A stretch of 64,000 bases of DNA from Escherichia coli (GTDB lineage: Bacteria; Pseudomonadota; Gammaproteobacteria; Enterobacterales; Enterobacteriaceae): NCBI RefSeq assembly GCF_024298765.1, contig NZ_CP101210.1; one strand, written 5' to 3'. Each line of letters opens with the position of its first letter. The stretch's first letter is position 1. Below the pieces are notes generated by a model. It was given only the letters and a program-made list of their open reading frames with translations, had not been told where the DNA came from and ran no database searches. Positions 13,009-64,000 of the stretch are shown piece after piece. The position numbers were made by a program, and so were the translations under genes.

Positions 13009-13020
13009 AATTCATATAAA

Positions 13021-13050
13021 CGGACCTCCACGGAGGTCCGTTTTTCGTTT
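13021..13050 (+). terminator. rho-independent terminator of pheU
   Basis: Perfect hairpin cggacctccacggaggtccg followed by tttttcgtttt. Confidence 0.85.
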
Positions 13051-13205
13051 TAGGACGCCACGATTTAAGCGTCCTGCCGCCAAATCAATTCTACCGAACT
13101 CAACCAGACTCCCCCCACATCAACCCCATTGTGTGGGTATAATTGCGGGTATACCCCAGTTCGACAGAATTTGTACCCTCTTTAACGCATTCAGAAGGCT
13201 GAACT

Positions 13206-14468
13206 ATGGCACTGACTGACGCAAAAATCCGGGCTGCAAAGCACACTGACAAGGCTTATAAACTCACTGACGGGGCTGGCATGTTCCTGCTGGTACATCC
13301 TAATGGTTCCCGTTACTGGCGTCTCCGTTATCGTATTCTGGGTAAGGAGAAGACTCTGGCACTTGGTGTGTATCCAGAAGTTTCTCTCTCCGAAGCTCGT
13401 ACAAAACGGGATGAGGCCCGAAAACTGATTTCAGAGGGGATTGACCCTTGCGAACAGAAAAGAGTTAAAAAAGTAGTCCCTGATTTACAGCTCTCTTTTG
13501 AACATATTGCACGACGCTGGCATGCCAGTAATAAACAATGGGCACAATCACACAGCGATAAAGTACTCAAAAGCCTCGAGACACACGTTTTCCCCTTTAT
13601 CGGCAACCGGGATATCACAACACTCAATACCCCGGACCTGCTTATCCCTGTTCGTGCTGCAGAAGCAAAACAAATTTATGAAATCGCCAGTCGTCTGCAG
13701 CAAAGAATATCTGCTGTAATGCGTTACGCCGTACAGTCTGGCATCATCAGATATAACCCGGCTCTGGATATGGCTGGTGCATTGACCACGGTAAAACGCC
13801 AGCATCGCCCCGCTCTGAATCTTTCACGTCTGCCTGAACTTCTGTCGCGTATTAACAGTTATAAAGGTCAGCCTGTCACCCGGCTTGCTGTTATGCTGAA
13901 TTTACTGGTTTTTATTCGCTCCAGTGAACTCAGATATGCCCGCTGGGCTGAAATTGATATTGACAATTCAATGTGGACTATTCCAGCCGAACGCAAACCT
14001 CTGCCAGGGGTAAAATTCTCACACCGGGGCTCCAAGATGCGAACACCACATCTTGTGCCACTCAGCAAACAGGCTGTAGCCATACTGACAGAACTTCAGA
14101 CATGGGCTGGTGAAAATGGTCTGATCTTTACGGGAGCACATGACCCGCGTAAACCAATCAGTGAAAATACCGTAAATAAGGCCCTCAGAGTGATGGGGTA
14201 TGACACAACCAAGGAAGTCTGTGGCCATGGATTCCGGGCGATGGCGTGCAGTGCATTGATTGAATCAGGTTTGTGGTCCCGCGATGCTGTGGAACGTCAG
14301 ATGAGCCATCAGGAGCGTAATGGTGTACGTGCTGCGTATATCCATAAAGCAGAACATCTGGAAGAACGTCGACTGATGCTACAGTGGTGGGCAGATTTTC
14401 TGGATGCGAACAGAGATAAGGGTATCAGCCCGTTTGAATATGCAAAGATTAACAATCCATTAAAATAG
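13206..14468 (+). CDS. int: P4-type tyrosine integrase (genomic-island integrase)
   Basis: 420-aa ORF immediately 3-prime of tRNA-Phe; N-terminal MALTDAKIRAAKHTDKAYKLTDGAGMFLLVHPNGSRYWRLRYR typical of P4/CP4-57-type integrases; C-terminal catalytic region with H-x-x-R and terminal Tyr region. Confidence 0.9.
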   Translation: MALTDAKIRAAKHTDKAYKLTDGAGMFLLVHPNGSRYWRLRYRILGKEKTLALGVYPEVSLSEARTKRDEARKLISEGIDPCEQKRVKKVVPDLQLSFEHIARRWHASNKQWAQSHSDKVLKSLETHVFPFIGNRDITTLNTPDLLIPVRAAEAKQIYEIASRLQQRISAVMRYAVQSGIIRYNPALDMAGALTTVKRQHRPALNLSRLPELLSRINSYKGQPVTRLAVMLNLLVFIRSSELRYARWAEIDIDNSMWTIPAERKPLPGVKFSHRGSKMRTPHLVPLSKQAVAILTELQTWAGENGLIFTGAHDPRKPISENTVNKALRVMGYDTTKEVCGHGFRAMACSALIESGLWSRDAVERQMSHQERNGVRAAYIHKAEHLEERRLMLQWWADFLDANRDKGISPFEYAKINNPLK

Positions 14469-14919
14469 TAAGCAGTCCGGGCTGATTGCCCGGACTGCTT
14501 TAACTGATTATTTTTCTTTGTAAATGATGACGAAGATTGATGTTCTGGCAAGTTACTCCGGCTTCCATTAAAGTCCCTTCGTCATGTTCTTCAGGCTATT
14601 TATGACTGTGATTAGCACCAGGAATATCTGGTTTCCATGAGAGCAGGTAATACCCCCCGGTGTTTTCGGCTGTTCTGGTATCCTTGTCCAACGCAGGCAG
14701 TCATTATAAACGGTAAAAAATGTATTCACTGTTATGAAATCAATAGTCCTGACGTACTGTTGAATGTGCTTGCGTTCTGAACCTTGTACAACCAGTACAT
14801 TTGATACCGAATTATAAACAAAACATTGCATCCAACTTTTTCAATATGGACAATAGTTGTCCATATGGTGGTTTTATATTCGATAAATCAATGGATTTCA
14901 TTGAGTCATAGGACTGGTA

Positions 14920-17900
14920 ATGGATGAAAATGCTTTAGGGTTTGCCTCATACTGGCGCAACTCGCTTGCGGACGCTGAGTCAGGAAAGGGCAGTTTTGAA
15001 CGGAAAGACGCCAAAAATTTCACTCATTGGCATGGGATAGCGGCGGGACGTCTTGACGAAGCGATTGTCAGTAAATTTTTTAAGGGAGAAAAAGACGATG
15101 TCGAAACGGTCGATGTCATCTTGCGCCCAAAAGTTTATTTCCGGTTACTGCAGCATGGTAAGGACCGTTCTGCAGGTGCGCCTGATATTGTTACCCCGAT
15201 AGTGACGCCAGCCTTGCTAAGCCGTGAGGGTTTTTTATATCCGACGCCAGCGACCTCCATTCCCAGAGACCTGCTTGAACCTTTGCCAAAAGGAGCATTT
15301 TCGATTGGTGAGATTGGGCAGTATGACAAATACAAGACGACCCATACCACGTTCTCTATCAACTTTGATGACAGCGTTGATAAGACTGCCGAAACGGATG
15401 AAGAACGGGAAGAACGATATGCAGCCTTGCAGCAGGAGTGGCGTCAATATCTGGATGATTCAGAGAGGCTGCTGAAGAACGTTGCCGGCGACTGGATTAA
15501 AAATCCTGAGCAATATGAACTCGCTGAGCACGGTTATATTGTTAAAACGGCGCAATCTGGCGGTGCCAGTTTCCATATCCTTTCTCTTTATGATCACCTG
15601 CTTGTTTGCAATAAGGATGTGCCGCTCTTCAATCGATTCGCCTCGCGAGAGGTTCATGCTGCAGAGTCTTTGCTGGCCCCTGGAGCAAAATTCAGCGACA
15701 GGCTTGGACACTCCGGAGATAAGTTTCCGCTGGCAAAGGCTCAGCGCGATGCCTTAAGCCATTTTCTGGATGCTAAACATGGCGATATCCTTGCTGTTAA
15801 TGGCCCTCCTGGAACCGGAAAAACCACGCTGGTGCTTTCTATCATCGCCACGCAGTGGGCCAGAGCGGCTCTCGAAAAATCTGAGCCTCCGGTTATTATC
15901 GCGACTTCAACGAATAACCAGGCTGTAACGAACATTATTGAGGCATTCGGGAAAGACTTTTCGCAAGGTTCAGGTGCGATGGCCGGGCGATGGTTGCCAG
16001 AGCTGAAAAGCTTCGGCGCTTATTTTCCCTCAGGCAGCCGTAAAGCTGAAGCAGCCAAAAAATATCAAACTGAAGATTTCTTCAACCAGGTTGAGTCAAA
16101 AGAGTATGTAGAAGATGCACTGCTGTTTTATCTGGAAAAGGCTAAGGCAGCCTTTCCTGAAAAAGAGTGTTCATCCCCTGAAAAGGTCATTGAACTCCTG
16201 CATGGTCAGTTGGCAGCAAAATCCGAGCAACTGATAAGACTGAACGCAACATGGCAAAAGTTAAGCCAGATTCGGGCTGCGCGTGAGCTTATTGCTAATG
16301 ATATTGAGCAATATCTCAATAATTTAAATAAATTACTTTCCGGACAAGAACAAAAAATCACTCTACTGAAGAGTGCTAAAACGGAATGGAAAAAATATCG
16401 CGCCGGTGAATCACTGATCTATTCATTATTTTCCTGGCTTCCGGCGGTTCGCAGTAAGCGACAGTACCAAATACAGCTGTTTCTCGAAGATAAATTAGGT
16501 GCGCTGATTGCAGGAAATCAATGGTCTGATCCTGAAACTATCGAACGTAATATTGATGGGCTGCTCAATTCCGCTGAGCGCGAGCAAACAACATACCGGC
16601 AGCAGATTGACTCCGCCCATGAAATCATTCTTAAAGAACAGCAGGCGGTTCAGGAGTGGCAGAGACTGGCTCTTGATTTAGGGTATGAGGGCGACGAGGA
16701 ACTGAGCTTCTCACAGGCCGATGAACTGGCTGATACGCAGATTCGCTTCCCTGCATTTTTACTGACGACTCACTACTGGGAAGGTCGTTGGCTGATGGAT
16801 ATGGCCAGCATTGATGATCTGCAGGAAGAGAAGAAGAAAAAAGGCGCTAAAGGGGTAACCGCCCGTTGGCAACGTCGAATGAAACTCACTCCATGTGTGG
16901 TGATGACATGCTATATGCTGCCCGGCAATATGCAGATAAGTGAGCACAAAGGACAGCGTAAATTCGAGAAAAGTTATTTGTATGATTTTGCCGATTTACT
17001 CATTGTCGATGAAGCCGGGCAGGTGCTTCCTGAAGTGGCTGCTGCCTCGTTTGCATTAGCTAAGAAGGCATTAGTGATTGGCGATACGGAGCAGATCCCG
17101 CCAATATGGAGTATTGCTCCTGCGATTGATATCGGTAACATGCTGGCGGAAAAAATTCTGTCTGGCAGTACGCAAGAAGAGATTACCGAGAAATATACGG
17201 CAATCGCAGACCTTGGTAAAAGTGCCGCATCTGGCAGCGTTATGAAAATAGCGCAGTTTGCTTCGCGCTATCAATATGATCCCGAACTGGCTCGTGGTAT
17301 GTACCTATATGAACACCGCCGGTGCTACGACAATATTATTGGATACTGTAATACGCTCTGCTATCACGGTAAGTTGTTGCCTAAAAGAGGGCGTGAAGAG
17401 AGCAATTTAATGCCCGCAATGGGGTATCTCCATATTGATGGTAAAGGAGAGCTGGCAAGTAGTGGAAGTCGATATAATTTGCTTGAGGCTGAAACGATAG
17501 CGGTCTGGTTGGCAGAGAACCAGCAAAATATTGAAGCGCATTACGGTAAATCGCTTCATGAAGTTGTCGGTATTGTGACGCCTTTTAGCGCTCAGGTATC
17601 CACTATCAAACAGGTGCTGGGCAAACAAGGTATCAGTACGGGCACGAATGAAAAGTCGCTCACAGTGGGCACCGTGCACTCTCTTCAGGGAGCGGAAAGA
17701 GCGATTGTGATATTCTCGCCAGTCTATTCAAAACATGAAGACGGCGGGTTTATTGATAGCGATAACAGCATGCTGAATGTTGCAGTCTCCCGTGCGAAGG
17801 ACAGTTTTCTGGTCTTCGGCGATATGGACCTGTTTGAGGTCCAGCCAGCCTCATCGCCACGGGGATTACTGGCAAAATACCTCTTTGAGTCAGAGAAGAA

Positions 17901-18435
17901 TGCGCTCTCTTTTGATTATAAAGAGCGTAAGGATTTAAAAACCGCCGGGACCAAAATCTACACACTTCATGGTGTGGAGCAACATGATAATTTCCTGAAT
18001 CAGACATTTGAAAATACCAGTAAACACATCACGATAGTTTCTCCATGGCTGACCTGGCAAAGGCTGGAGCAAACCGGTTTTCTTGATTCCATGATTGCGG
18101 CGTGTTCACGTGGAATTAACGTCACGATAGTCACTGACAGAAGCTACAACACTGAACATAATGATTTTGAGAAGCGAAAAGAGAAGCAGCAGAACTTTAA
18201 AGCGGCGCTGGAGAAACTGAATGCGCTGGGTATTGCTACAAAGCTGGTAAACCGTGTTCATAGCAAAATTGTTATTGGTGATGATGGTTTGCTGTGCGTG
18301 GGATCGTTCAACTGGTTTAGTGCGACACGGGAAGCGCGATATGAACGATACGATACATCAATGGTTTATTGCGGTGATAACCTGAAGGGTGAGATTGAGG
18401 CTATTTATAATAGTCTTGAGAGGCGGCAGGTTTAG
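14920..18435 (+). CDS. large SF1 (Upf1/DNA2-like) helicase fused to C-terminal PLD-family (HKD) nuclease; candidate single-gene anti-phage defence protein (Mokosh type II-like)
   Basis: 1171-aa ORF; Walker A GPPGTGKT at 15802..15825; Walker B-like LIVDEAGQ; motif VI-like [17 protein letters not shown]-terminal HxKxxxxD motif HSKIVIGDD at 18259..18285; first cargo gene after integrase. Confidence 0.7.
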
Positions 18436-18543: not shown

Positions 18544-20043
18544 TTATCTTCTGTCCGGAAGAATCAGAGGCTGTGGTTTCAGACTGTCTGCCGGTACATT
18601 CCTGTCTCCGTTAAAAACAATAACGGGTTCATTATCTTCGTCTGTCAGCGGATTGAATGGCGGTATATTTTCAGTACGAATGCCGGTCAGCCACTGAAAA
18701 ATACCTGCGAAATGACGGGCACTGATTTTTCTGCTGACGGACTGATGAGACGTGATGTCACTGGCGGTAATAATCAGGGGAACGCTGTAGCCTCCTTGTA
18801 TATGGCCATCATGATGAACAGGATTAGCACTGTCGCTGACCGACAGACCATGGTCAGAAAAGTAAAGCATGGCAAAATGACGGGAGTGCCGGCGAAGGAT
18901 ACCATCAAGCTGACCGAGAAAGTTATCCAGTTTACTGATGCTGGCGAGGTAACAGGCAATCTTTCGGGGATACTGCTCCAGGTAATGATTCGGCCAGGAG
19001 TTAAGTCGGTCACACGGATTCGGATGAGAGCCAATCATGTGCAGGAATATCACCTTCGGAGAGGATTTATCCGCCAGTGCACGTTCTGTTTCCTGTAACA
19101 ACAACATGTCATCCGTTTTACGGGAAGCAAAGCTGCCTTTCTTGAGGAAAACGGTATGCTCCGCATCAGAAGCAATAACAGAGATGCGTGTATCATGCTC
19201 CCCCAGTTTTCCCTGATTGGATATCCACCATGTGCTGTATCCTGCTTTTGCTGCCAGCGCCACCACGTTGTTGCCGGAGTCAGGGTTCTGCTCATAGTCA
19301 TAAATCAGTGTCCGGCTCAGGGAAGGTACGGTACTGGCTGCTGCCGATGTATAGCCGTCAATAAATAAACCGGGAGCCGTATTCAGCCATGGTGTGGTTG
19401 GCACGGGATAGCCATATACCGACATATAATCCCTGCGCACACTCTCACCAGTAACGATAACAATCGTGTCATACAACGGTGTTCCCGGCAGGATTTTCCA
19501 GTTGTCAGCCCCGTGCTGACTCAGTTGTTTATAACGCTGCATTTCACGCAATGTGTCAGTTGTTCCCACAACAATTCCTTTAACCATCCGCAACGGCCAG
19601 CTGTTTACAGAGCATAATACGAACAGCAGCAGTGCCAGCCAGTTACGGTGACCGCGGTGGTGTGTCCGCCAGAAAATCACCATGAATACCAGAATCGCGG
19701 CACTGACCAGAAAATGATAAACAGGAATCATCCCGGTAAACTCTGCAGCCTCATCAGCCGTGGTCTGCAGCAACGCGACAATAAAACTGTTGTTGATTTT
19801 ACCGTACGTCATACCCGCAGGCGCATACAGTGCACAACAGAACAGAAATAACAGCGTTGTAATGGATGTGAGGGTATTTCTGTGTGCAAGGAGCAGAAGG
19901 AGAAACAGAAGCAGCACATTTCCTGTGGCATTCTTCTCAGTGTATCCGCATGCAATTGTGGTTATCACAGAAATAACAAAAAAGAATAAAAACAATAAAA
20001 TCCGGGGTGTGTCGCCCGGACAAAACAGTTTTCTGATATTCAT
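18544..20043 (-). CDS. phosphoethanolamine transferase / sulfatase-superfamily inner-membrane protein (EptA/MCR-like family)
   Basis: 499-aa ORF; N-terminal multi-TM region then periplasmic domain with VTGESVRRDYMSVYGYP (cf. GE[T/S]AR nucleophile motif of EptA/MCR), HMIGSHPNP and FSDHG metal-site motifs. Confidence 0.7.
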   Translation of the reverse strand: MNIRKLFCPGDTPRILLFLFFFVISVITTIACGYTEKNATGNVLLLFLLLLLAHRNTLTSITTLLFLFCCALYAPAGMTYGKINNSFIVALLQTTADEAAEFTGMIPVYHFLVSAAILVFMVIFWRTHHRGHRNWLALLLFVLCSVNSWPLRMVKGIVVGTTDTLREMQRYKQLSQHGADNWKILPGTPLYDTIVIVTGESVRRDYMSVYGYPVPTTPWLNTAPGLFIDGYTSAAASTVPSLSRTLIYDYEQNPDSGNNVVALAAKAGYSTWWISNQGKLGEHDTRISVIASDAEHTVFLKKGSFASRKTDDMLLLQETERALADKSSPKVIFLHMIGSHPNPCDRLNSWPNHYLEQYPRKIACYLASISKLDNFLGQLDGILRRHSRHFAMLYFSDHGLSVSDSANPVHHDGHIQGGYSVPLIITASDITSHQSVSRKISARHFAGIFQWLTGIRTENIPPFNPLTDEDNEPVIVFNGDRNVPADSLKPQPLILPDRR

Positions 20044-20224
20044 CGGAGTATATCGACAACATTATTATGAAGAGAACAGGATAATAAAAATCAGAAATTA
20101 TCTGTAAAACAGATAACAGACAACCCTGCAGCAATAGACTGCAGGGTGTTTCTGTTTAATTGCAGAAGATATACAATTATATTAATTACAGAATATTCGT
20201 GATTATCTCTCGGGAACAGTGTTG

Positions 20225-20965
20225 TCAGAAGTTATAAGTCACACCAAGCATGATGTCATGACTTTTAACATCAACTTCTGACTTATATTTATCGCCCCAC
20301 TCGTCCTTGTAACTCACACTGCTGTCACCTGCATCAAGATAGCGATAGCTGAGGTCCAGAGCGATATCCGGGGTTACGTCATAGCGGACACCCGCGCCAA
20401 GGTTCCATGCGAAGTTGTCAGCAGAGCCTGAACGTGACAACGATTCGCGACCACTGCTTCCGTACTCATAATCCCAGGTACTGATACCGGTTGTTTTCTG
20501 GTGAATTCTGGCGTAGCCAATCCCTGCAGATATCCAAGGTGTGAATGCGCTGTCATTCCGGAAGTCATAGTACGCATTCAGCATTAGTGTGTTGACTGAC
20601 ACCTCATTCTTCAGGTCATCACGCCAGTAACCACCTGACCAACTGTCTTTATCTACGTTATACTTCGAATCAGCTTTTCCACGAGCGTAAAACTCCAGTT
20701 CTGTACGAACCGGAATACTGAACTGCGGATAAAAATCATAACCAGCCGCGATACCACCACTGAATACCGTATCATGGTCATCGCCGCCTTTATACTTTGA
20801 CGTTTCTTCCTCATCTCCTGACAGGAAACGCTGGTCTGAAAGTGACACCACAGAGGTACCGGCTTTACCGGTCAGATAAAAACCGCTTTTACCTTCCTCA
20901 GCACCTGCATTTGCTGCAAATACACAGGCTGCGGCCACCACTGAAACAGCAAAAACCTTTTTCAT
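20225..20965 (-). CDS. outer-membrane beta-barrel protein (OmpA-like transmembrane barrel family)
   Basis: 246-aa ORF; Sec signal peptide MKKVFAVSVVAAACVFAANA; alternating amphipathic beta-strands; C-terminal aromatic residue (GVTYNF) typical of OMPs. Confidence 0.7.
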   Translation of the reverse strand: MKKVFAVSVVAAACVFAANAGAEEGKSGFYLTGKAGTSVVSLSDQRFLSGDEEETSKYKGGDDHDTVFSGGIAAGYDFYPQFSIPVRTELEFYARGKADSKYNVDKDSWSGGYWRDDLKNEVSVNTLMLNAYYDFRNDSAFTPWISAGIGYARIHQKTTGISTWDYEYGSSGRESLSRSGSADNFAWNLGAGVRYDVTPDIALDLSYRYLDAGDSSVSYKDEWGDKYKSEVDVKSHDIMLGVTYNF

Positions 20966-21452
20966 TTCAATTATCTCCGTTATTGCTCCGTTGCTGCAAG
21001 CAGTACTCAGTGCATTTTAAAACCCGCCATGCTATAGCCTCAATCGAATAAAATCGATCGAATCGATCGATGATATCGATCGTCATTAACCAGAAATTTT
21101 TATCGTATTCAGTCAGCACAGACACAACAAATGCATGCCATGCAGGCAGCCATGCCCCGTCGCGACAGATGGTAGCAGTGGGCTGGCGAAGAGCAGAATT
21201 AATAAAATTTGTTTATTCTGTCAGGAGATAAGGTGTCACCTGTTCATGAACACAATTAAGGAAGAGACATACATGAGCTGACTGGCAGTCCAGAGTGCAT
21301 GCGGTTACAAGCCGGAAAGGTGAACCGGTATAACCAGTGAGCAGAGTTTGTGAAGGGGGGATATAAAAAAGCCCACTGCATGGCTGCGGGTAAAGAGTCA
21401 GTTATTTCCGGCGTTTTTCAAGGTAGTTGTCGCCTGATGTAATAAAATTACG

Positions 21453-21790
21453 TTATGCCGCTTCTTTTTCTGGATTCAGATAAACTGCCTGAATGAGTTC
21501 CCAGTCACGCAACTGTTTGCTCCAGCGCTCAGGATGACGCTTGCGAGCTTCGCGATAAACTTTTTTTCTGGCTTCCAGTATTTGTGCATCAATTCCGCGA
21601 TGGCGTTCATCCGGAGTAACATACTTAATACCGCTGTGCTTGTGTTCCAGGTTGTACCATTACGTGAACTTGCTTAACCAACTTCTGGCTTCATCTATGG
21701 TTCGAAAACCATTCTCCGGCCACCATGAACAATACTTAATCGTCCGGAAGAGCGATTCGGAATAAAGAAGTGTTACTGGCAGTTCTTTCA
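21453..21790 (-). pseudogene. remnant of IS3-family transposase OrfB (C-terminal part, in-frame stop)
   Basis: Minus-strand translation gives ...GFRTIDEARSWLSKFT*WYNLEHKHSGIKYVTPDERHRGIDAQILEARKKVYREARKRHPERWS..., typical integrase-core C-terminus, interrupted by a stop; no intact ORF. Confidence 0.5.
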
Positions 21791-21820
21791 TCGCATCAGT
21801 GAAAACCAGCAGGGCACTGC

Positions 21821-22162
21821 TCACCAGAGCAACACAGGAAAGTGAACCCGAACAAAAGTTCCTGTACCATTTTCTCCCAGCAGACGTGAGGCTTGTTCCA
21901 GTGACGCTGGTATACGTCCCAGCCGGACATCAAGTGCGCCGATGGCTATTGCCTGAAATCGCATCGTACAGCAAATCACCAACAGGACACCGACAGACAT
22001 TAAAGGTAACCCCCTGTAATCCAGTAGTTCCGACAGCCAGCGGTCATTTAGGGAGTCAGAAAACCAATCGCCAGAATCGTGCCCGGAAAGGCATAACCCA
22101 GCGACGCCCCTCTCATCACACCGCGCCTGAACAGTGGCATAGCGTTGAGGAATTCCGGGCAT
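21821..22162 (-). pseudogene. possible fragment of an ABC-transporter permease gene
   Basis: 113-aa ORF contains permease-like EAA-loop-type segment (IPASLEQASRLLG) but is far too short and lacks context. Confidence 0.25.
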
Positions 22163-22291
22163 TCCAGACTACGAGCAGACTGACAAAAATTACGACAAAG
22201 CGTTGAAGGAAGCCAGCGCGCGGACTGACAGGACTTTACCATAAAAACACAGGCTAACCGCGCCTGCGTTTTTAATGACGGATAAACAGAA

Positions 22292-52800: not shown

Positions 52801-52816
52801 GCAGGAGGTTTTTAAA

Positions 52817-54612: not shown

Positions 54613-54753
54613 AATATCGTTTTATCGTCCGATAACTCTTTCTGCAATATTATTATGGGAGACTGTCTCATTTATTTAGTGATGTCCTTCATTTATGTGA
54701 TGAAGGACATTATATTACTCATAACATTTCTCGTTGAAAATTTCAGCAATACG

Positions 54754-55878
54754 CTACAATTGTTTCCCGTTGTTTTTTAATTTTCTCATCAAAACCTCTG
54801 CGATCTCTGCAGGAGTGGGTTGTTCAGCCATTTCAGCGGCTACCTGATCTGAACAGAAGCGTAGTGAATCATCATAAAGCAGGCGATTTACCAAATCACT
54901 GGTCAGTCCATGCTTGTCCGGAATAATCCCACACCCACGCTTCGCAACAATTTCTGCATTAACAGAGCGATCTGCACCTTCTCCAAACACAATCTGTGGT
55001 ATTCCACTATACAGCGCTGTCAGGGTATTACCTGCGCCACCGTGATGAATAAATCCATCAGCTCCATTAAGGAATACACCCATAGGTATCCAGTCAACCA
55101 GACGTACATTTGATGGTAGTTTTCGTAATCCAGTACGAGCATTTATTGCAAGTTGCAAAATGATATCAGCATCAACTTCATTTGCTGAATCCATAACCCA
55201 TGAAATCAGCTCCAGACCATCAACCATTGGTTTTACAGTGCCAAGGCTGATGAGTAAACGTTTCCGATCAGAATCCCTGTCCCACCATGTTTCCTTTACA
55301 GCACCTCCGTTATAAGGAATATATCGCATTGAGATAATCGGTTCTTCAGCATTTTTAAGAATGCTCATACTTGGGGGAGCAACATCAATCCATGCTAAAT
55401 CACATAGTGGACCGCTGACTCCATGCCGCCTGTAAGCATTGCTTAAAGAACGGTTTAACATCTGAATATGGGCAGATGTATGCGCGAATCCAACAGCCAG
55501 CATCACTGAAGAAATTCTATATTTAGCAGCAACCAATGGGCCTGCCGGACCAAGCGGGGGATAGACTATTAAATCTGGCCTCCATTTTCCTGCAAAATCG
55601 ATGAGGTTATCTGCCATTTCATCGCTAAAAAAAGAGAAATGACCAATAATATTACTTTTTTTCCTCAACTCTTCCTGATGACGATATCCAGCCTCTGAAT
55701 CTAAACTTGGAGCTGCATCAAAAACAACCAGTCCAGCTTCTGCTGCTTTATTCGCGAATTTGCCAGCGCTACTAATTACTACATCATGTCCGATTACACG
55801 AAAGGCCTGAGCCAGAGAAATCAATGGGTATAACAAACCGTACAGCGGAGGGCCAATAAAAAGAATACGTTTTCGCAT
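54754..55878 (-). CDS. IroB-like C-glycosyltransferase (MceC/McmL/MchA-type) for siderophore-microcin maturation
   Basis: 374-aa ORF; GT1-family architecture; C-terminal donor-binding region ...HHGGAGNTLTALYSGIPQIVF... Confidence 0.7.
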   Translation of the reverse strand: MRKRILFIGPPLYGLLYPLISLAQAFRVIGHDVVISSAGKFANKAAEAGLVVFDAAPSLDSEAGYRHQEELRKKSNIIGHFSFFSDEMADNLIDFAGKWRPDLIVYPPLGPAGPLVAAKYRISSVMLAVGFAHTSAHIQMLNRSLSNAYRRHGVSGPLCDLAWIDVAPPSMSILKNAEEPIISMRYIPYNGGAVKETWWDRDSDRKRLLISLGTVKPMVDGLELISWVMDSANEVDADIILQLAINARTGLRKLPSNVRLVDWIPMGVFLNGADGFIHHGGAGNTLTALYSGIPQIVFGEGADRSVNAEIVAKRGCGIIPDKHGLTSDLVNRLLYDDSLRFCSDQVAAEMAEQPTPAEIAEVLMRKLKNNGKQL

Positions 55879-56554
55879 TAAAAAAGTCCGTCTTCTGCTT
55901 ACCTGTTTATTTTTCTATCGCTAAGAAAACATAATTAATATTATTTTTATGTGAGCTTATGCACAAAAATAACAAAGTATCTTATCTTCTGGTAGAGATA
56001 CAGGATACAGTTTGTAGGAGCTTTCTTTTTTTGAACAATGATTTGCAGGACAGTTATGCCAACCTAGCAGAATCAGTATCACAACAATAAATGACAGATC
56101 ATACCTGAAATTTGAATTAACAGGCATCATGAATGTCAATAGTCTAAGCGGTTACTACTTACATCGCTTGCATAAATACTAAACACTGACTAGAAAAGTA
56201 TTGGATAACCCCGTCACTAAAAGTAACACTTCGGTTATTTGCTCGGAATGTATCAACGCCAAGATTGTTAGCCGTTACGCCTTATATCACTGGCGCTGAC
56301 AAATGTTTCTTTTCTAATTTACTGAACCGGCGCAGACTTACAGAAAAACACTCCGGCACCGGTGTAATGCCAGTTATAAACAATGTGAATGGAATGACGA
56401 ATCAGTCAGGAAAGAGCTACAATCTGCTGGCTGACCGGAGAGGGTCAGCAGGAAGATGAACGGTAATGTCGCCAGCACCAGGGGCAGGGCCGGGTTCCAC
56501 AATACCAGCGCCGGCATTTTGCACATTGCCAGCGTACCGGCATCACAACACGTT

Positions 56555-56728
56555 TCATGCAGCTGCTCCTCGTGATTCCTCAATTCGCTGCTGCATCCAC
56601 TGCTCCACTTCACTTTTGTACCAGCGGCTGCTGCGGCCCAGCTTGATGGGTTTCGGGAAATGGCCTTCACTGATCAGCTTGTAAAACCATTTATCTGTCA
56701 TACCGGTGAAACTGGTGATGTAGTTCAT
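56555..56728 (-). CDS. alpA: AlpA-family phage/island transcriptional regulator
   Basis: ORF track 56555..56791; internal start gives MNYITSFTGMTDKWFYKLISEGHFPKPIKLGRSSRWYKSEVEQWM, typical Phage_AlpA HTH. Confidence 0.75.
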   Translation of the reverse strand: MNYITSFTGMTDKWFYKLISEGHFPKPIKLGRSSRWYKSEVEQWMQQRIEESRGAAA

Positions 56729-56859
56729 GTCGATCAGGGGATCGTCGGCACGCAGCAACACGCAGTCGTGGCCTGTCATTGAGGTCAACATGGTCAGAAT
56801 ATCCTCTGTGAGATTTATGAAGGTTGTGCGAATGCGGGGAAAGGTGCTGAGCCGTATTC

Positions 56860-57435
56860 TCAGAACGGTCCTGCAGATCCGGGATAGCCGGGATTACCGG
56901 CGAGGCAACGGGCTTCCGGATCGCACACACCACGACGATCGCGGGCGAAATCACTGAACGCCCAGATCAAATCTTTGAGGATGTCTTCGCAGTCCGGTGA
57001 ACGACTGTCCAGCACCACATCCCGGGTTATCTGTTTCTGGTACGGTGCCGCTTCCCCCGGTGACGCGAAGCCCAGTACGTTGCTCCAGGCATCCAGAATC
57101 AGCCGGTCCAGTTCGGGGCCGTCGAAATACTCCTGTCTGACGCACAGCACCACGTGGTATTCCGGCTTTTCCGGATGACGGGTCAGGAGCCAGCAAAGGT
57201 CGCGTCCGGGTTTCGCATTCATCAGCGCACTGACGGTTTCGATAAAATCCATACCAAACCAGGTCTGTCTGCTGTTGAAGGCGTTGTCATGTTCCCACGG
57301 CAGACGAAGCAGGATCCGCCGTATCCGTGAGCCGGACTGCTCACGCAGCGCACGCTCAAGGACGCCGATGACTTTGTTCTGATAAGATGGCCAGAAGGGT
57401 GCCAGGCTATAGTCGAAATAAGGAATAGCATTCAT
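56860..57435 (-). CDS. YfjJ/YagK (inovirus Gp2-like) family protein
   Basis: ORF track 56860..57567; start at MNAIPYFDYSLAPFW gives about 191 aa; downstream of alpA as in CP4-57-type islands. Confidence 0.6.
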   Translation of the reverse strand: MNAIPYFDYSLAPFWPSYQNKVIGVLERALREQSGSRIRRILLRLPWEHDNAFNSRQTWFGMDFIETVSALMNAKPGRDLCWLLTRHPEKPEYHVVLCVRQEYFDGPELDRLILDAWSNVLGFASPGEAAPYQKQITRDVVLDSRSPDCEDILKDLIWAFSDFARDRRGVCDPEARCLAGNPGYPGSAGPF

Positions 57436-57681
57436 AAGATATGTTCCGTTATGCGCAGCCCACAATGCGTCCTGCCCGTGAATGAGCTGACGTGTTATGG
57501 CTTGCGGATGAGATTGATGGAATAAGTGAAGAACTGAAGCAGAACGGGAAGATAAGGGACAGAACACCGGATTCAGGTTCAGGATGAATGATCTCCGTTG
57601 ACTTCAGTTCACATCATTAATCAATGCGGTAAGTTTTTACCGACGGAGTGTTTCCAGGAGCGGAGGCTCAGGCCTTAAGCT

Positions 57682-58248
57682 TCAGAAGTGAGGCTTACGA
57701 GGACGCCCTGCAGCAGGACGTTCAGGAACTTCATTGCAGCCGTAGGCACACAGCCCGTCTTTTTGTTCTTCTTTCGCCAGATAATGCAGGGCACCGCGAA
57801 TATTATCGATGCTTTCAGGATCGTTGTGGCGCACAGGAATGTTGATGTTGTATGCATAATGCGGCTGATATGTACAGCGGTGCGCCGAACCACAGTTATA
57901 CGTAATTGCCTGCCAGCATTCCGCTATCCGCTCCGCAAAGGGATATATTTTTTTAACCCTCTGACGATCGATCCAGAAAACGACATGCGCATGAAAACCA
58001 TGATCAGCCGTCCATTCAATCACCCAGAAGAAACCAACGATATTTTCAAATTGTTCCACCTGCTCCAGCAGCATACGCAACTGTAATTCAAGCCAGCGAT
58101 GATCAGGTTGTAAGAAATCGGGCGTATCTTTCCTGTAGAAGAAATCCATCCGTAAGGCCCGCAGGCAGGAATAGCGTGCCATCATTTGATTGATGTGATT
58201 GTCAAGTAAAGCGGTAAAAAACCAGTTTGGTGTGTAAGATTTAGGCAT
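57682..58248 (-). CDS. YfjJ/YagK (inovirus Gp2-like) family protein
   Basis: 188-aa ORF MPKSYTPNWFFTALLDNHINQMMARYSCLRALRMDFFYRKD...; paralogue of 56860..57435 and 61862..62593. Confidence 0.6.
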   Translation of the reverse strand: MPKSYTPNWFFTALLDNHINQMMARYSCLRALRMDFFYRKDTPDFLQPDHRWLELQLRMLLEQVEQFENIVGFFWVIEWTADHGFHAHVVFWIDRQRVKKIYPFAERIAECWQAITYNCGSAHRCTYQPHYAYNINIPVRHNDPESIDNIRGALHYLAKEEQKDGLCAYGCNEVPERPAAGRPRKPHF

Positions 58249-59665
58249 GTTGATGACTCCTGAAAGTTAATGATGTTTTAAGCTCTGTGAGCGAATTAAT
58301 GCTTTCGCTCATAATCAGATCTAAAACGGTAATAACTTACAGATGGTATTTATCAGGCATGCTGTAACAGAATGGATACGACGGATTATTAACGACACAC
58401 AGCGTTGTGCTGAAGGGTATGAGTTATCTGATGGCATTGTCTATAGAGATGAGATAAACGAGGTGCGAAGAAAATACAGATTCAATACAACACAGTGAAA
58501 TACAGAAAAATACGAACTGTAATCCCGCTGCCAGGCGGTTAGGAAACATATTACAACTATAAGCTCATGATTTGTAAATTTGCTCTCAGTGAGTCTGAAA
58601 AAACGTTTATAAGGTCACCACAATAAACTCACACGCGCTTATTCAATCTGTTTTCCAGGATATGAACGTTAACGACACACGATAGCATAAGACAACATAC
58701 AATGGATGAATAATTTTCACCCAGTACCTTAAACAATACAACCGGCAACAAATATAATCAGAAATTCACTCTGTTAATTCTGTTGTTTATCCTGCGCTGT
58801 TAAACATGACGGAATCATGGATACCTTATCAAAGAGTAAACATTCAGTTAATCTGTGATGACAGAGAAATTGTTTCCAACCAGAATAGTTAAAACACTTC
58901 AGATAAACAATCATTGTTAAGCAAATACAGTTCATGATGGATAAGATTAAAATCAATTGCTGTTTCACTGAAAATGAGAACAGATGGATATCAGCAATAG
59001 CGTAGTAGAGAATAACTTATCCGAACATCATATGAGTTACAGTAATTATGATTGAGGGGGATGGAGTGGATACGATAACAAGAGTAAATAAAGACAGAGT
59101 AAAAGTAAAGGGCAAGTGTAATAATAGTAATAAACCTAAATTAAAATTATCCATGTTTGATGTAAAAATAATAATATACTGACAACCATGAAGGTAAGAA
59201 AAAGAGAGTGCAGGTATCAGGAAGATCTCAGGATATGAAGATTCCCACAGCACAGATTTAAAATTAGTCGAATATAATAAATTTAAAAACCTTAATTAAA
59301 ATGTAATCTCATCCATGGTTAACATGCTCCTGAAAAGGAAAGTTACAAATACCGTATGCTACCAACTAATTACAACAATGATATATGTACATTCAGTAAG
59401 AATACAGATAAAATATTAATACCAACTTCCAGTATCAAGATCGTATCGCGAACTTCAGATGCGCTATGAGGCAGTTCAATTTTTAACTTTCGTTTTCCTC
59501 TTCCTCCCTGGCTTCATATGCATAAGCGACTTGAAAGACCCGATGATAGTTACAATTTCAGGTTGTGGCATGACGATCAATTTGTAACTGAAACAATGAA
59601 CGGTAACGCTGCCATATAAACATCAAAATGCGAGCATTACAGCGACATTGAACCGATTAGATGTA

Positions 59666-60406
59666 TCACTCATAATCAGAACAAGATGATGTATCCTGAG
59701 ATATAAGAAAATCATCAAGAGAACCTCCGGCTTTTATTGCTTCTGCAATAACATTAGGCCGACGACCTTGTCCACTCCAGTACATTGTTTGACCGTTATA
59801 CTCATATCTGTATTTATGCCCTCCTGACACACTTTTTCTGCCTGCCTGTAATTTTTTGCCAAATTCACGTTCGTCGATCATGGTAATGATATAGCGACGC
59901 ATTTCACCCATTCTGAGCTCAATGGCGTCCATCCCAATGAGCTCACCGGTCTTTACCAGACGGTAGTGCTTTGGCCGGTGGGGTTTGGCGGTTCGCTTTT
60001 TGACAAGCAGAGCCTTACCCCGCGAGCTCAGACGTACTGGTACCATCCGCATTTTATCGTGTGCGGTGGCGATCATTCTGCCGATGGTGGAAACACTCGG
60101 GCAGGTCAGATGGCGCTGTGCGCACCAGGGCTTCAGGCGAACAAAAATCTGCTCTTTACCGAGGTTTGGCAGCTCTGTCCTGAGGCGTCGAATCTCTTTC
60201 AGCACATCGGGATGCCAGTGCTTTTTTCGTCGCACCAGAGGTGCCTTACTGTGCGGGATTAGCCCCTCAGGTCCTCCCTTGTTCAGTAACTGACGCCACC
60301 AGTAAAGCGTGCGGCAGGACACGCCAAAGGCTTCAGAAGCCGCAGAAATACCGTGTTTATCCCAGAAGTGCAGAGCCTTCATTCTCATTGTTGCTATATC
60401 AGCCAT
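59666..60406 (-). pseudogene. transposase-like gene fragment (HTH plus start of integrase core), probably degenerate
   Basis: ORF track 59666..60421; HTH region (FGVSCRTLYWWRQLL) then partial rve-like start (GMDAIELRMGEMRRYIITMID) but no complete catalytic core. Confidence 0.4.
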
Positions 60407-60899
60407 CACTGAAAGCCTCAACGCATAATCGGCCGTTTAGGATAGCCAACCATCAGATGCTGCATTTGCATAGTGCAATCTCCCCTTACTTATCCGGAGG
60501 CAATTGCAATATCTCTGTGAACTTACACACAGGTATAATCAATAAGGGCGTACGGAGATTGCCCGTTATTGCTGCAGGATCGGCAGACTGGTTCCCGTCC
60601 TTGCGCATATAACTGTACAACCACAGAGAAAAGCATCAATGCACGCTTTATGTTGCGTCAGGGCAGCGAACGACTCCTTTTGTTGACGACACATATCACC
60701 TTCTGTACTGCCAATTATGGCATTCAGCGTCTCCCCGAGTTTTAAGCTCCTGCTCTTACGAACCAGCGACAAGCAATAAATAACTATGGCAATGAATCTA
60801 ATAACAGCATAAATATGAGACTCATCGATACTCATCGTGATTAGTATAATCGGGGCAGAATTATATTCACTGTCTGATTTATTATTGAGTTAAATATAA

Positions 60900-61352
60900 T
60901 TAAAGTGTTCTCAAAAGTCTGGCTGGATTACCGGCATACACGCCTTTTACCAGCACGGGCTTTGTAACCACACTACCAGCACCAATCACTGCTCCACTGC
61001 AAATTTCTGTGGTTAAAATGGTCGCTCCGCTACCCACTGTTACAGTGTTACCTAATACGATGCGTATCCAGCTTTCTGCAGAGGCATCGGGACCACCACA
61101 CTTAAAAAGATCATTAGCAAAAGTTACGCCATGACCGATGAAACAGCCATCACCTAAAATGACGTTCTCACAGATGAAACTGTGGGACTGAATTCGGCTC
61201 CGGTTGCCAATGATACATCCCTTCTGTATTTCCACAAAGGGACCGATAAAAACATCATCCCCCAGTTCACATTCATAGAGGTTTACTGGCATGACGACTT
61301 TCACATTTTCACCAAATTTCACATCACGAATGCGGCTGTCAATAACGTTCAT
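60900..61352 (-). CDS. hexapeptide-repeat (left-handed beta-helix) acetyltransferase
   Basis: 150-aa ORF with tandem [LIV]-G-x-x-x-x hexapeptide repeats (IGDGCFIGHGVTF, LGNTVTVGSGATI, SGAVIGAGSVV). Confidence 0.75.
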   Translation of the reverse strand: MNVIDSRIRDVKFGENVKVVMPVNLYECELGDDVFIGPFVEIQKGCIIGNRSRIQSHSFICENVILGDGCFIGHGVTFANDLFKCGGPDASAESWIRIVLGNTVTVGSGATILTTEICSGAVIGAGSVVTKPVLVKGVYAGNPARLLRTL

Positions 61353-61861
61353 ATCCGTTGTATCCTCCCTCAGGATGATTCTTATCAGAACATTTCACCT
61401 GTCAGAATATTCCCGGTAATGTGATACAAGAGCCAGTCTCACCGGGTACCATGTGTTATTGCTCGTATCCTTTTGCCCGTTACGAGTGTACAACCGGTTT
61501 TATATTTTGCAATCCAGGCCTGTTACACCAGAGCATCCTCTCACTGCCCCCTCACTGGTCAATCCGGGATTCAAAGTCATCCTCCAGCACTAAACCCCAT
61601 ACCAGTCCTGAACCTTCCCTCGCCAGCAGCCAGACTCCTACTGTTCACCACAATCCTCTTCCGTGAATGGCCGTAAGTGCGCAGCACCAAAATAAATCGG
61701 TACTTCCGATGACAGACAGTGAAAGCGTCAGAGAAATATGAACATGAGAATGGAAGCAGATACATGACTTCAGGACGACTTTTTCAGAAAACGAGCTAAG
61801 GGCGTCAGCCAACGACCTTACCGTGGTATACGCTCAGGCGCCGGATGCCGTTTTACCCGGT

Positions 61862-62593
61862 TCACCTGCCATCCAGCAAACGCCCCGGCCCACGACTGCA
61901 ACCATAATTACGTTGCCCGGAACCGTCATGCTGCTTCGTCTCATATTTCACGAGATAACTGGCTCTGTTCCGGGCTTTCTGCATCGCTTCCACATCACCA
62001 CGCTTGATCCAGAGAACAGCGGCTTCACCAGACTTTTTGTCTGAAGCCTTCCAGGTATCAGAACATCCACCCGACAAAGGCGTGTCATCGGAAGAAGGGC
62101 GAACATCAGACGATGCTGGTTTACGGGAAGGCGTCCACCTGGAAAAATGGACCAGGCCATCGCCTTGCCAGGGCTCAAGATGCAGGGCGCTGCACCATGC
62201 CTCCTGGATCATCGTCGCCAGCGAAGACGGTTCGCTGAAATCCCCGAGCGAGCACCAGGTATCTTTGTTGAGCAGTAATATCACGTGATAATGTTTCCTG
62301 CCATACATCTTGCCGAACTCCCGGCACCAGAAATAACCCAGGCTGGTTGCATGCACACGCTGATTGGCACATCTTTTTTTCCGCTGGTAAGCCTGAATTT
62401 TGGCTTTCAGGGATGCAAAAAAACGAGAAATCACCGCTGAATCCGGATCGGGATCCATGATGGTGACAGGCATATACTCAGGGAAACGTAAATCCACCCG
62501 GATTAACGAGACGGCACGGTGCTGCGCCAGGGCACTGTCGAGAAGGCTGTCAAAACGGGATAACCAGTAAGCATTGTGTATTGGTTGATTCAT
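61862..62593 (-). CDS. YfjJ/YagK (inovirus Gp2-like) family protein
   Basis: 243-aa ORF MNQPIHNAYWLSRFDSLLDSALAQHRAVSLIRVDLRFPEY...; CP4-like island backbone family. Confidence 0.6.
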   Translation of the reverse strand: MNQPIHNAYWLSRFDSLLDSALAQHRAVSLIRVDLRFPEYMPVTIMDPDPDSAVISRFFASLKAKIQAYQRKKRCANQRVHATSLGYFWCREFGKMYGRKHYHVILLLNKDTWCSLGDFSEPSSLATMIQEAWCSALHLEPWQGDGLVHFSRWTPSRKPASSDVRPSSDDTPLSGGCSDTWKASDKKSGEAAVLWIKRGDVEAMQKARNRASYLVKYETKQHDGSGQRNYGCSRGPGRLLDGR

Positions 62594-62984
62594 GATGAGA
62601 GATCTCCGTTGATTTGGATTGACTTCACATCATTAATCAACGCAGTAAAACTTTACGGCATCCGACATTGAGCAATACTACAACTCTCTGATTAAGAGTG
62701 ATTGAAACGGAACAAACCATCCCGGAACGAAAAGATAATCCTGCACACAGCAGCAAAATACGCAACAACAGCATGAATGGATTTAAAAACGACATGGACG
62801 ACGAGAAAAGTCTGAAGGGAAAAGGAGCCACAGAACATTCGAACAAAACACCAGAAATGCAACCAGAACGCTTCCTGGCAATGCAAATCAACAACAACGC
62901 CAAAACCTACAACTTAATCACACAACTCAATCACGGATGCGAATGACACGCTTAAAACCTGTTTACAGATAACGCCGTAACACG

Positions 62985-63026
62985 ATCATCACCATCACCA
63001 TCACCATCACCATCACCATCACCATC
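62985..63026. repeat. hexanucleotide microsatellite (ATCACC/CATCAC) of about 6.7 units
   Basis: Perfect tandem atcacc repeats 62988..63023 with partial flanking units; not in any long ORF. Confidence 0.9.
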
Positions 63027-63460
63027 AGAATCGATTTTCTCATCCCGAAAATGTTACGTTTCACTACGCACCATAAAAACGATTAACCATCGATAACGTA
63101 AATCTCATCTGAATCAAAACACCAAAACCGTTCATCACACTTTCGCAATGCAAGAAGAAACCTCATGACAAAAAGAATGACCTTACACGGAAAAGAAAAA
63201 CGTCAGGAATCGTTAATGCCTCAATCTGATTGTTATCAAAACATCCAGAAAGTCGTTTAACAGAATCGTCGTAAGCACATCGAAAAGAACGTCAGATTAC
63301 TTCAGGAAAGTTCGGGTTGATTTAGCGTAAAGATACTTTTCTCAAGCTAACGTCGAAACTCGAAATCTCAGGAAAGGTTAAACGTAACATCAGTAAAATC
63401 GAATAGCAGATTGATTGCTTAAACAGAAAGGTTTTACAGCAGCATTAAACTGATTTAGTT

Positions 63461-63494
63461 AACGTAAAGATTTACTAAACGTAAAGATTTACTA
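63461..63494. repeat. two perfect tandem copies of a 17-bp unit (acgtaaagatttactaa)
   Basis: Direct tandem duplication; related copies (ttagcgtaaagatac, ttagttaacgtaaagat) nearby at about 63316 and 63455. Confidence 0.85.
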
Positions 63495-64000
63495 AACTGG
63501 ATGTGTATCAGATCAAACAATGTGTACAGCAATGCTTAATGAAAATACTTGTAGAATTGTTTATGAGAAAGCGTGTATAACACTTACTGAAATGCTTAGT
63601 TAAATACGTGTATGTTTGGTAAAACACTTAAGTAAAATACGTGTATAGTACCATTCCCGACATTCTCAACATCTTCAGACATCCATGCAGACTGAGTGTT
63701 GATTTCAGTTTTTCACGGCCAGCATGGATCTTTACTGTTTAAAAAACATACAGATTTACTCTGAAATTATTTACCCAGGCCTCCCTGAAAAGACCATCCG
63801 GAGCATCCCGTTCGTCAGCTTCCATGTTGTCTTTTACCCCGGAAAGTGATCGCATTTTCCAGCCAGAATGACAGCCATACTGATTATGACGTCTCTCCGG
63901 CCCCTTCACATATAACATTCATGTCAGTCATTTCTTACTGCCTCACTCACCGGAATTCTCCATGCCGGATGAAGCAATTGTTCTGAACTGAGCAGAAGCA

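Follow-up and report, generated by a model that had tools for sequence, protein, structure and literature searches.

Mosaic structure of a genomic island at the pheU tRNA-Phe gene of Escherichia coli

A 64,000-nucleotide stretch of Escherichia coli DNA (contig NZ_CP101210.1; the whole stretch is here called the window) leaves the conserved chromosome at the pheU copy of tRNA-Phe, raising the question of what lies beyond this point and how its parts came together. A first-pass annotation, made from the sequence alone, had proposed that pheU carries an island exceeding 50 kb, with a P4-type integrase and missing from K-12, and this is what we find, with 50,992 bp of the island inside the window. 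It had also read the island as composite, which agrees with the very different distributions of its segments among the 5,426 complete genomes that we surveyed. Positions 13009–64000 are very probably the proximal 51 kb of a mosaic pheU island of ~61 kb, the parts of which were joined by recombination between islands.

The tRNA-Phe (GAA) gene at 12933–13008 (forward strand) was identified by both ARAGORN and Rfam, and an Rfam gathering scan found no other RNA families. Its last 23 nt (12986–13008) are the attL core, TTCGATTCCGAGTCCGGGCACCA. The upstream gene order (groL, groS, yjeH, fxsA, aspA, dcuA, cutA, dsbD, yjdC/dicD) is that of the K-12 pheU flank, and 3560–13122 aligns to K-12 with 98.8% identity. 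The K-12 genes that come after pheU, the yjdQ integrase pseudogene and then cadC-cadBA, are absent from the window, and no part of 13123–64000 has a match in the alignment to K-12, so that the collinearity with cadC and cadBA that would speak against an island is not seen. The K-12 homology extends 114 bp beyond the tRNA because the arm nearest int of an old island, related to this one, survives in K-12. By sequence comparison this arm, which includes the tRNA terminator hairpin, spans 13009–13141 (forward strand); the K-12 pheU remnant is homologous up to 13122, and the arm recurs after attR in strain ACN002 with 89.7% identity.

Apart from attL itself, a search for the 23-mer allowing up to 3 mismatches in 23 nt found no copy of the tRNA-Phe 3′ end anywhere in the window, and the distal att site therefore lies outside it, as the first-pass annotation had anticipated. 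Exact copies of the 23-mer are present at the far end of the island in ACN002 and XB2. In ACN002, where the island is at pheU, it ends ~9.9 kb past the window edge at the exact 23-bp repeat, after which come an older integrase remnant and cadC; in XB2 the attR 23-mer sits in the same right-end sequence, although the island is at pheV and is followed by a second island. The distal boundary is thus placed by proxy through these two relatives, the window itself stopping short of it. With ACN002 as the proxy the total length would be about 60.9 kb, and the window's own distal end (attR, cadC) probably matches that of ACN002. We considered whether ACN002 was an unreliable proxy, as the last 8 kb of the window seemed nearer to strain GPEC1031, and rejected this: 19 of the 22 differences are in one variable kilobase, and there are only 3 differing positions in 22 kb outside it.

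The first gene after the tRNA encodes an intact P4-type tyrosine integrase of 420 aa (13206–14468, forward strand), recognized by its domains and its similarity to IntA. Its start is 198 bp downstream of tRNA-Phe, in line with the earlier statement that the core ends at the tRNA and that such an integrase follows within 200 bp. The domain order (Arm-DNA-bind_3, Phage_int_M, Phage_integrase) is the P4-type architecture, and over its whole length the protein shares 35% identity with IntA of CP4-57. A 485-bp patch (13334–13818) derives from another common allele, giving four amino acid changes relative to WP_001218753.1; mismatches were read position by position only in stretches free of indels. 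The integrase family is found in 3,444 of the 5,426 genomes; no further integrase fragments were found in the window by tblastn with IntA and the island integrase as queries.

The integrase is followed by a gene (14920–18435, forward strand) that is predicted by PADLOC to be mkoC, a single-gene type II Mokosh anti-phage system. The match is full length (E = 0, 1694 bits; residues 1–1169 against 1–1135/1136), with an SF1 helicase-like part and a C-terminal nuclease-like region, and the protein is identical to those of XB2 and CH4804. Further head cargo occupies 18544–24271 on the reverse strand and, using PGAP names in relatives, comprises a phosphoethanolamine (PEtN) transferase (18544–20043), an OmpW/Adr-like outer membrane protein (20225–20965), an ABC permease pseudogene fragment and a PhoX phosphatase (22292–24271). 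Of the 5,426 genomes, 369 carry this head (13.0–24.4 kb; integrase, Mokosh II, PEtN transferase, outer membrane protein, PhoX) at pheU and 210 carry it at pheV, placing one integrase lineage at both loci. In B771 an identical head is joined to unrelated cargo beyond ISEc8.

The head gives way to a graveyard of insertion sequences (24401–31010) that forms a mosaic joint. It contains IS3-family fragments (~24.4–26.2 kb), an ISEc8 with a frameshifted tnpC (~26.1 kb to 28541), a 402-bp IS3-family OrfA fragment (28542–28943), IS1 (28944–29711) and an IS3-family element (29838–31006). The widely distributed head stops at 28541 and identity to a leuX-type island begins at 28943; the left edge of this second block is an IS1 end and not an att site. 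In other genomes the joint fragment is mostly plasmid-borne.

From 28943 to 64000 and beyond, the sequence is 99.1–100% identical to the interior of the GPEC1031 leuX island, excepting a deletion in the cdi locus. The GPEC1031 island (with fec, pgt and fimbrial genes, at the K-12 KpLE2 position) has the order ahr-leuX-int…fec-IS1-IS3-R-M…nanC-fimB, and shares with the window the series IS1, IS3, truncated AAA ATPase, R-M, cdi, microcin H47, alpA and YfjJ. It differs in its tRNA, its integrase (WP_001218930.1), its left part (fimbriae, pgt, fec) and its right end (nanC-fimB). The fec-IS1-IS3 context is also present in N21 and FDAARGOS_1287, with GPEC1031 being the one genome traced all the way to leuX; about 22 genomes carry this tail block. 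In ACN002 the near-identity goes on for ~3.4 kb past the window end and then drops to 96.9, 93, 86 and 84% through the CP4-like backbone towards attR. This 'yee' backbone (GTPase, DUF932, antirestriction, RadC, CbtA/CbeA, DUF4942) is seen only in relatives, beyond the window end, which qualifies the first-pass reading of a CP4-like backbone downstream of pheU.

The accessory character of the DNA downstream of pheU, as first described, is evident throughout: in addition to MkoC and the insertion sequences there are a type I R-M system, a CdiA fragment with CdiI, a microcin H47 cluster, and AlpA and YagK/YfjJ genes. The leftmost gene of the shared block is a truncated AAA ATPase (221 aa; 31020–31685, reverse strand) cut by the adjoining IS3, which in a profile search is matched by GajA/PDC-M55A-like profiles over their N-terminal third only; VTB96959v retains a 540-aa version plus a partner gene. 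Next is a complete type I restriction-modification system (31694–37911, reverse strand), with hsdS (31694–32800), hsdM (32797–34431) and hsdR (34495–37911) intact in one cluster and each matched at full length by PADLOC (Specificity_I, 1.6e-112; MTase_I, 1e-192; REase_I, 7.6e-274). Together with Mokosh II, the R-M and truncated AAA systems put on record a defence cluster next to the integrase. The neighbouring contact-dependent inhibition (CDI) locus (38005–41801, reverse strand) consists of cdiI, encoding a YezG-family immunity protein (38005–38337), and the C-terminal 1154 codons of cdiA (38337–41801), with hemagglutinin repeats, PT-VENN and an Endonuclease_NS_2 toxin tip. Compared with XB2 and GPEC1031 the window has lost 9,379 bp here, the deletion junction lying at ~41755–41760; the loss took out cdiB, two small genes and the N-terminal two thirds or so of cdiA (~6.3 of 9.7 kb), whereas GPEC1031 retains a full cdiBA. 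No match to the CdiA N-terminal secretion domain was found with Pfam, and the window lacks an intact cdiBAI set. With only the C-terminal toxin tip and cdiI left, the locus is a remnant that no longer works as a CDI system, although in this reduced form it may still protect against neighbours bearing the full toxin.

Nested within the block is a microcin H47 small genomic island (42547–56412). Its G+C content is 0.39, compared with 0.45–0.52 elsewhere and 0.50 in the core, and the compositional profile proposed as a check is thus heterogeneous. The mch set is complete for precursor, immunity, maturation and export, with intact reading frames for mchF (45267–47387), mchE (47362–48636), mchD (48789–49241), mchC (49267–50817), mchB (51089–51316), mchI (51344–51553) and the mchA glycosyltransferase (54754–55878) on the reverse strand, and mchS3 (52366–52800) and the mchS1 esterase (53338–54612) on the forward strand; a CPBP protease gene (43585–44271, forward strand) lies to their left. 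Imperfect direct repeats flank the island (42547–42719 and 56210–56412, 13,663 bp from start to start), and no integrase was found between them among the ORFs or by tblastn. The island described in E. coli H47 and as GI-2 of strain 042 is likewise ~13 kb and low in G+C, has no integrase of its own, and shares mchA, S1, S3, I, B, C, D, E and F as well as imperfect terminal direct repeats (PMC3191183). In the window the repeats came out as two collinear blocks (42 bp at 81% and 44 bp at 77%), whereas the published figures are larger, 148/144 bp at 76% (PMC3191183). A 'complete' microcin H47 cluster has also been recorded in ACN002 (PMC6776366). Other strains have this island inside a leuX island, whereas in the window a tRNA-Phe island is its host.

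To the right of the microcin island is a gene for a 78-aa AlpA-family small DNA-binding protein (56555–56791, reverse strand), so named by PGAP for the identical WP_000958149.1 in relatives, and a candidate excisionase or regulator; K-12 AlpA gave no BLAST match in the window at E≤1e-3. Beyond it is a region of YagK/YfjJ (inovirus Gp2-like) genes (56860–62593, reverse strand), which contains the sole hypervariable kilobase of the leuX-type block. Four YfjJ-family paralogues had been counted at first pass. A local HMM run on the six-frame translation, Pfam, and BLAST with K-12 YfjJ reduce this to two solid members (57682–58248 and 61862–62593, both by PF11726 and the local HMM) and one ORF of marginal similarity (56860–57567), all on the reverse strand. 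Immediately upstream of the genes at 56860 and 61862 are the two copies of a 43-nt repeat (79% identity; 57598–57640 and 62614–62656), and the region also includes a chimeric HTH/H-NS-C-terminal ORF (59666–60421) and an acyltransferase gene (60900–61352).

The position of these genes bears on the proposal that several modules were fused in tandem, in which independent islands would have inserted in succession at tRNA-Phe and lost their internal att sites and integrases, the AlpA and YfjJ-like genes being relics. In favour of this view, alpA-yfjI-yfjJ adjoin int within 5 kb in K-12 CP4-57, which is at ssrA, whereas here AlpA (43 kb from the integrase) and the YagK/YfjJ genes (up to 49 kb) are distant and on the opposite strand, with YfjJ at 31% identity. 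Tandem arrays also form at tRNA-Phe in relatives, outside the window: ACN002 has the island plus a yjdQ-like remnant, XB2 the island plus a second integrase-bearing island, and CH4804 an SPI-7-type ICE plus the island. However, the window has no second tRNA-Phe 3′ end, no leuX 3′ end (20–30-mers, up to 3 mismatches) and no further integrase fragment; the AlpA and YfjJ genes lie within a block that is 99–100% identical in the leuX island, where they are equally far from any integrase; and the left edge of that block is an IS1 end rather than an att site. We therefore regard tandem accretion as unlikely.

The location of AlpA and YfjJ inside the leuX-type block, the IS joint, and the gradual decay of the backbone are together best explained by exchange between tRNA-linked islands through IS elements and the shared backbone, with a small island nested in the result. 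Probably the P4-type integrase encoded beside the tRNA brought the island in, recombining attP site-specifically with the 3′ end of pheU. The present content is a mosaic of four parts: a head module that circulates at the two tRNA-Phe genes, which are identical; the IS cluster; a block of at least 35 kb shared almost base for base with leuX-linked islands; and, beyond the window, a CP4-like backbone tail. Related islands at tRNA genes would have supplied these parts, with homologous or IS-mediated recombination making the joins. IS insertions and the 9.4-kb deletion would represent later erosion. The position, boundaries and gene content of the island and the distribution of its parts are observed, whereas the recombination mechanism and any direction of exchange are inferred from the few genomes inspected.

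A different possibility, and in our estimation an improbable one, is that the ~38–48 kb block from IS1 to the GTPase gene transfers as a self-contained unit, with a mechanism of its own, from one tRNA-linked island to another, instead of having been spread passively by homologous recombination. AlpA together with Gp2/Rep-like YagK/YfjJ would be an example of such a mechanism, and the block is 99–100% identical at leuX, pheU and pheV. A related and likewise improbable idea is that the whole 61-kb island still hops between the two tRNA-Phe genes. A single crossover between inverted pheU and leuX (or pheV) islands, leaving the island to end at a foreign flank, is highly unlikely. In its favour, pheU and leuX are oppositely oriented on the K-12 map, islands at pheU, leuX and pheV have long homologous stretches in common, the distal end is outside the window, and over 22 kb the window tail is as near to the leuX version, with 8 differences, as to ACN002, with 22; but the carriers of the ISEc8-IS3′-IS1 joint traced to their ends have matching flanks (yjdC…cadC in ACN002, yqgA…gspM in XB2), and ACN002 is nearly identical to the window outside its one variable kilobase.

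Recombination between islands accords with what is described for islands at tRNA-Phe, which are IS-separated mosaics with only intP4 conserved and an attR of 19–23 bp (PMC11537424). In common with GI-pheV and GI-pheU (PMC11537424) the island has insertion at the tRNA-Phe 3′ end, an intP4-type first gene, IS-separated modules and a 23-bp attR, with a CP4-44/CP4-57-like 'yee' tail (in relatives) and tandem arrays; its presence also varies among strains and its composition is heterogeneous. The cargo differs, being neither the classical UPEC set (pap, sat, iuc, iha) nor LEE, but Mokosh II, type I R-M, a CDI remnant and a complete microcin H47 island, in a copy at pheU. Resemblance to CP4-57 extends to the P4-like integrase, an AlpA-family protein and YfjJ-domain proteins and, in the ACN002 continuation, to a tail of GTPase, DUF932, antirestriction, RadC and a toxin-antitoxin pair, although neither alpA-yfjI-yfjJ beside the integrase nor four YfjJ paralogues are present. 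The island is thus conventional, belongs to a well-described class and leaves current concepts of island biology unchanged. Its value is descriptive, offering a base-resolution view of island assembly from a tRNA-Phe-specific head, a leuX-shared block and a nested, integrase-less microcin island.

The exact combination of cargo is rare, with at least 80% of the proximal 25 kb present in only two of the 5,426 complete genomes, XB2 and CH4804. A pheU/pheV inversion in XB2, suspected from its gspM-glc distal flank, was rejected: the proximal flank is yqgA-pheV, and the island is therefore simply at pheV. As indirect evidence of integrase-dependent excision or integration, one island with the same two ends is found at pheU in ACN002 and at pheV in XB2.

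The DNA upstream of tRNA-Phe(GAA) (12933-13008, + strand), which is the sole tRNA gene of the window by both ARAGORN and Rfam, is the K-12 pheU flank; 3560-13122 aligns to MG1655 4,362,437-4,372,000 with 98.8% identity and includes groL, groS, yjeH, fxsA, aspA, dcuA, cutA, dsbD and yjdC/dicD. The K-12 order after pheU is the yjdQ integrase pseudogene, then cadC-cadBA; alignment to the MG1655 locus finds none of these genes in the window and no match past 13122. The check for cadC/cadBA collinearity thus leaves standing the first-pass annotation of an island at pheU, with the core ending at the tRNA. A P4-type integrase had also been placed within 200 bp of the tRNA, and a 420-aa reading frame (13206-14468) does begin 198 bp after it, with the P4-type architecture (Arm-DNA-bind_3, Phage_int_M and Phage_integrase) and 35% identity to CP4-57 IntA across the full length. 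We note that a 485-bp patch within this gene (13334-13818; ~4.7% divergence, four amino acid changes) holds 23 of the 24 mismatches between the island head and that of E. coli XB2, with only one mismatch in the following 12 kb, and the same set is seen against strains B771 and ACN002. The patch allele is common (at least 99% identity in 306 genomes, strain 042 among them), and its pattern in the alignments resembles a tract of gene conversion between integrase alleles.

The final 23 nt of the tRNA have no second copy in the window, allowing three mismatches, and the distal att site therefore lies outside view. The same island is present at pheU in E. coli ACN002, with 99.97% identity over 28024-55968 (where ACN002 has one additional IS2) and 99.74% over 55963-64000; with one variable kilobase set aside, three positions differ in 22 kb. 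The ACN002 island ends 9,914 bp past the equivalent of position 64000 with …GATAGAAGCATTC, then an exact copy of TTCGATTCCGAGTCCGGGCACCA. Beyond this 23-bp repeat is K-12-like DNA that is 89.7% identical to 12986-13141, and next comes part of another P4-like integrase gene, which at the nucleotide level is 70% identical to the 3′ terminus of the island integrase gene plus the DNA directly after it, and then cadC. The fragment is the counterpart of yjdQ. With its distal end taken from ACN002, the island is therefore about 60.9 kb long, of which the window contains 50,992 bp, and it stands in tandem with an ancient integrase remnant; K-12 also keeps this remnant, which is why K-12 homology runs 114 bp beyond the tRNA.

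The island matches the GI-pheV class, in which a P4-like integrase is the only conserved gene, modules are separated by IS elements, attR repeats are 19-23 bp, the tail is of the yee type and ICEs occur in tandem with the island (PMC11537424); the features tested for class membership are all found, attR by proxy only. It is organised otherwise than CP4-57, since alpA and yfjJ are distant from int. Few complete genomes have this exact combination, which is conceptually ordinary.

The att core is identical at the two tRNA-Phe genes, and integrases of this lineage use either one: among 5,426 complete genomes, 369 have the head (integrase plus next gene) attached to the pheU flank and 210 have it attached to the pheV flank. 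XB2 carries the island behind yqgA-tRNA-Phe (pheV), with 99.8% identity over 13009-38000 and the same right-end sequence and 23-bp repeat as ACN002; beyond these lie a second island, with a further integrase, a CBASS-like cluster and ICE fragments, and then gspM-glc. In E. coli CH4804 (locus coordinates 41126-46001) the same head is preceded by a tRNA-like stretch of 78 nt, given as ‘tRNA-Ser’ in the annotation, and by the ParA/DnaB-PI/ParB end of an SPI-7-type ICE; this is a tandem array of ICE and island with a hybrid att miscalled as a tRNA. Another pheU island with the same head, in strain Es_ST80 (31831-45001 of its locus), contains a frameshifted yghD/gspM fragment, normally of the pheV flank, adjoining an array of orphan cdiA-CT/cdiI modules, a hint that DNA has moved between the pheV and pheU loci in the past. 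The ACN002 head (1585-4351 of its locus) has an ISVsa5-aac(3)-AAA ATPase resistance segment in place of the window's ~14.5-28 kb, replacing Mokosh, the phosphoethanolamine transferase, the outer membrane protein, PhoX and most of ISEc8, and shows recent turnover.

That the island is composite, as had been proposed, is evident from the strongly different distributions of its parts. The segment 13009-28541 is common to many genomes at 99.7% identity or more, and divergence begins exactly at the end of ISEc8, after which B771, for example, has an S6 peptidase and AbgT. Only XB2 and CH4804 have at least 80% coverage of 13009-38000, and the distal 25 kb is present in 22 genomes. One of the relatives, GPEC1031, is 100.0% identical over 31501-41760 and 99.96% over 41755-64000, and its counterpart sits in a ~95-kb island at tRNA-Leu leuX, in the order ahr, leuX, a different integrase, fimbriae, pgt, fec, IS1, IS3, R-M…, nanC-fimB; the fec-IS1-IS3 context recurs in N21 and FDAARGOS_1287. 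Identity to the leuX version begins at the IS1 end (28943) and in ACN002 extends ~3.4 kb past the window, then drops stepwise (96.9, 93, 86, 84%) through the shared CP4-like backbone toward the tRNA-Phe-type attR. The most economical reading of these alignments would be that related tRNA-linked islands exchanged a large block, with the left crossover in IS sequence and the right one in the backbone. Fusion of modules in tandem had been suggested instead, and real tandem arrays do occur at this site in relatives, but the window has no internal tRNA-Phe or leuX att relic and no integrase fragment, and head-to-tail accretion within it is not supported. A hybrid formed by a single-crossover inversion in the source genome, whose distal end lies beyond the window, is unlikely because, in relatives that share this joint, the left and right flanks match each other. 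Under block exchange, the microcin H47 island would have been nested in the block beforehand, and the IS insertions and cdi deletion would have come after.

The head (13.0-24.4 kb) encodes, after the integrase, a 1171-aa protein matching PADLOC MkoC along its entire length (E=0, 1694 bits; type II Mokosh), a phosphoethanolamine transferase that scores far under the curated cut-offs of all EptA/CptA and MCR family models, an OmpW/Adr-like outer membrane protein and a PhoX phosphatase. An IS graveyard (24.4-31.0 kb) follows, with IS3-family fragments, ISEc8 with a frameshifted transposase, a 402-bp IS3-family OrfA fragment (plasmid-borne at 71 of 89 places elsewhere), IS1 and a further IS3-family element. 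The adjacent 221-aa AAA ATPase (31020-31685) matches just the N-terminal third of its families and is a remnant truncated by IS3. Directly upstream of the same hsdS, strain VTB96959v has a 540-aa version together with a 298-aa partner gene, which suggests that a two-gene system, possibly for defence, was formerly attached to the type I R-M cluster, itself complete in the island (PADLOC).

XB2 and GPEC1031 retain cdiB, two small genes and the 5′ two thirds of cdiA, all of which are missing here through a 9,379-bp deletion with ~2 bp of microhomology (junction 41755-41760) that ACN002 shares. What is left of cdiA is its final 1154 codons, with hemagglutinin repeats, PT-VENN and an Endonuclease_NS_2 toxin tip (Pfam), next to the YezG-family immunity gene cdiI. 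With cdiB and the secretion domain of CdiA gone, the locus is a remnant and not a functional CDI system, and immunity may have been kept after loss of the weapon.

The microcin H47 island (42.5-56.4 kb; G+C 0.39) has mchA, S1, S3, I, B, C, D, E and F all intact and is flanked by imperfect direct repeats at a spacing of 13,663 bp. It matches the published MccH47 small genomic island of ~13 kb, with long imperfect repeats and without an integrase (PMC3191183), and ACN002 is among the non-B2 strains listed with a ‘complete’ cluster (PMC6776366).

The final region (56.5-64 kb) encodes an AlpA-family protein, YagK/YfjJ (Gp2-like) proteins, a chimeric reading frame and an acyltransferase. Four YfjJ paralogues had been counted; two are solid and one is possible. 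A K-12 YfjJ search finds a single homologue (61862-62593; 31% identity, E=7e-23), Pfam PF11726 and a local HMM run on the six frames yield just one further member (57682-58248), and similarity of the 56860-57567 frame is marginal (22% over 157 aa). A 43-nt repeat (57598-57640 and 62614-62656) is upstream of both this frame and the 61862 gene, and suggests that YfjJ-like genes may be regulated together and that paralogues may recombine. The sole hypervariable kilobase of the tail block (28943-64000) is 57000-57999, which spans the YfjJ-like genes at 56860-57567 and 57682-58248 and holds 19 of the 22 differences from ACN002 and 71 of the 101 from XB2. A continuous 251-aa frame at 59666-60421 (- strand), annotated in relatives as two pseudogene fragments, joins a transposase-type HTH N-terminus to the C-terminal DNA-binding domain of H-NS (Histone_HNS in Pfam, 1.5e-11). 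This frame is probably an artefact of a junction, and could alternatively be a xenogeneic-silencing modulator.
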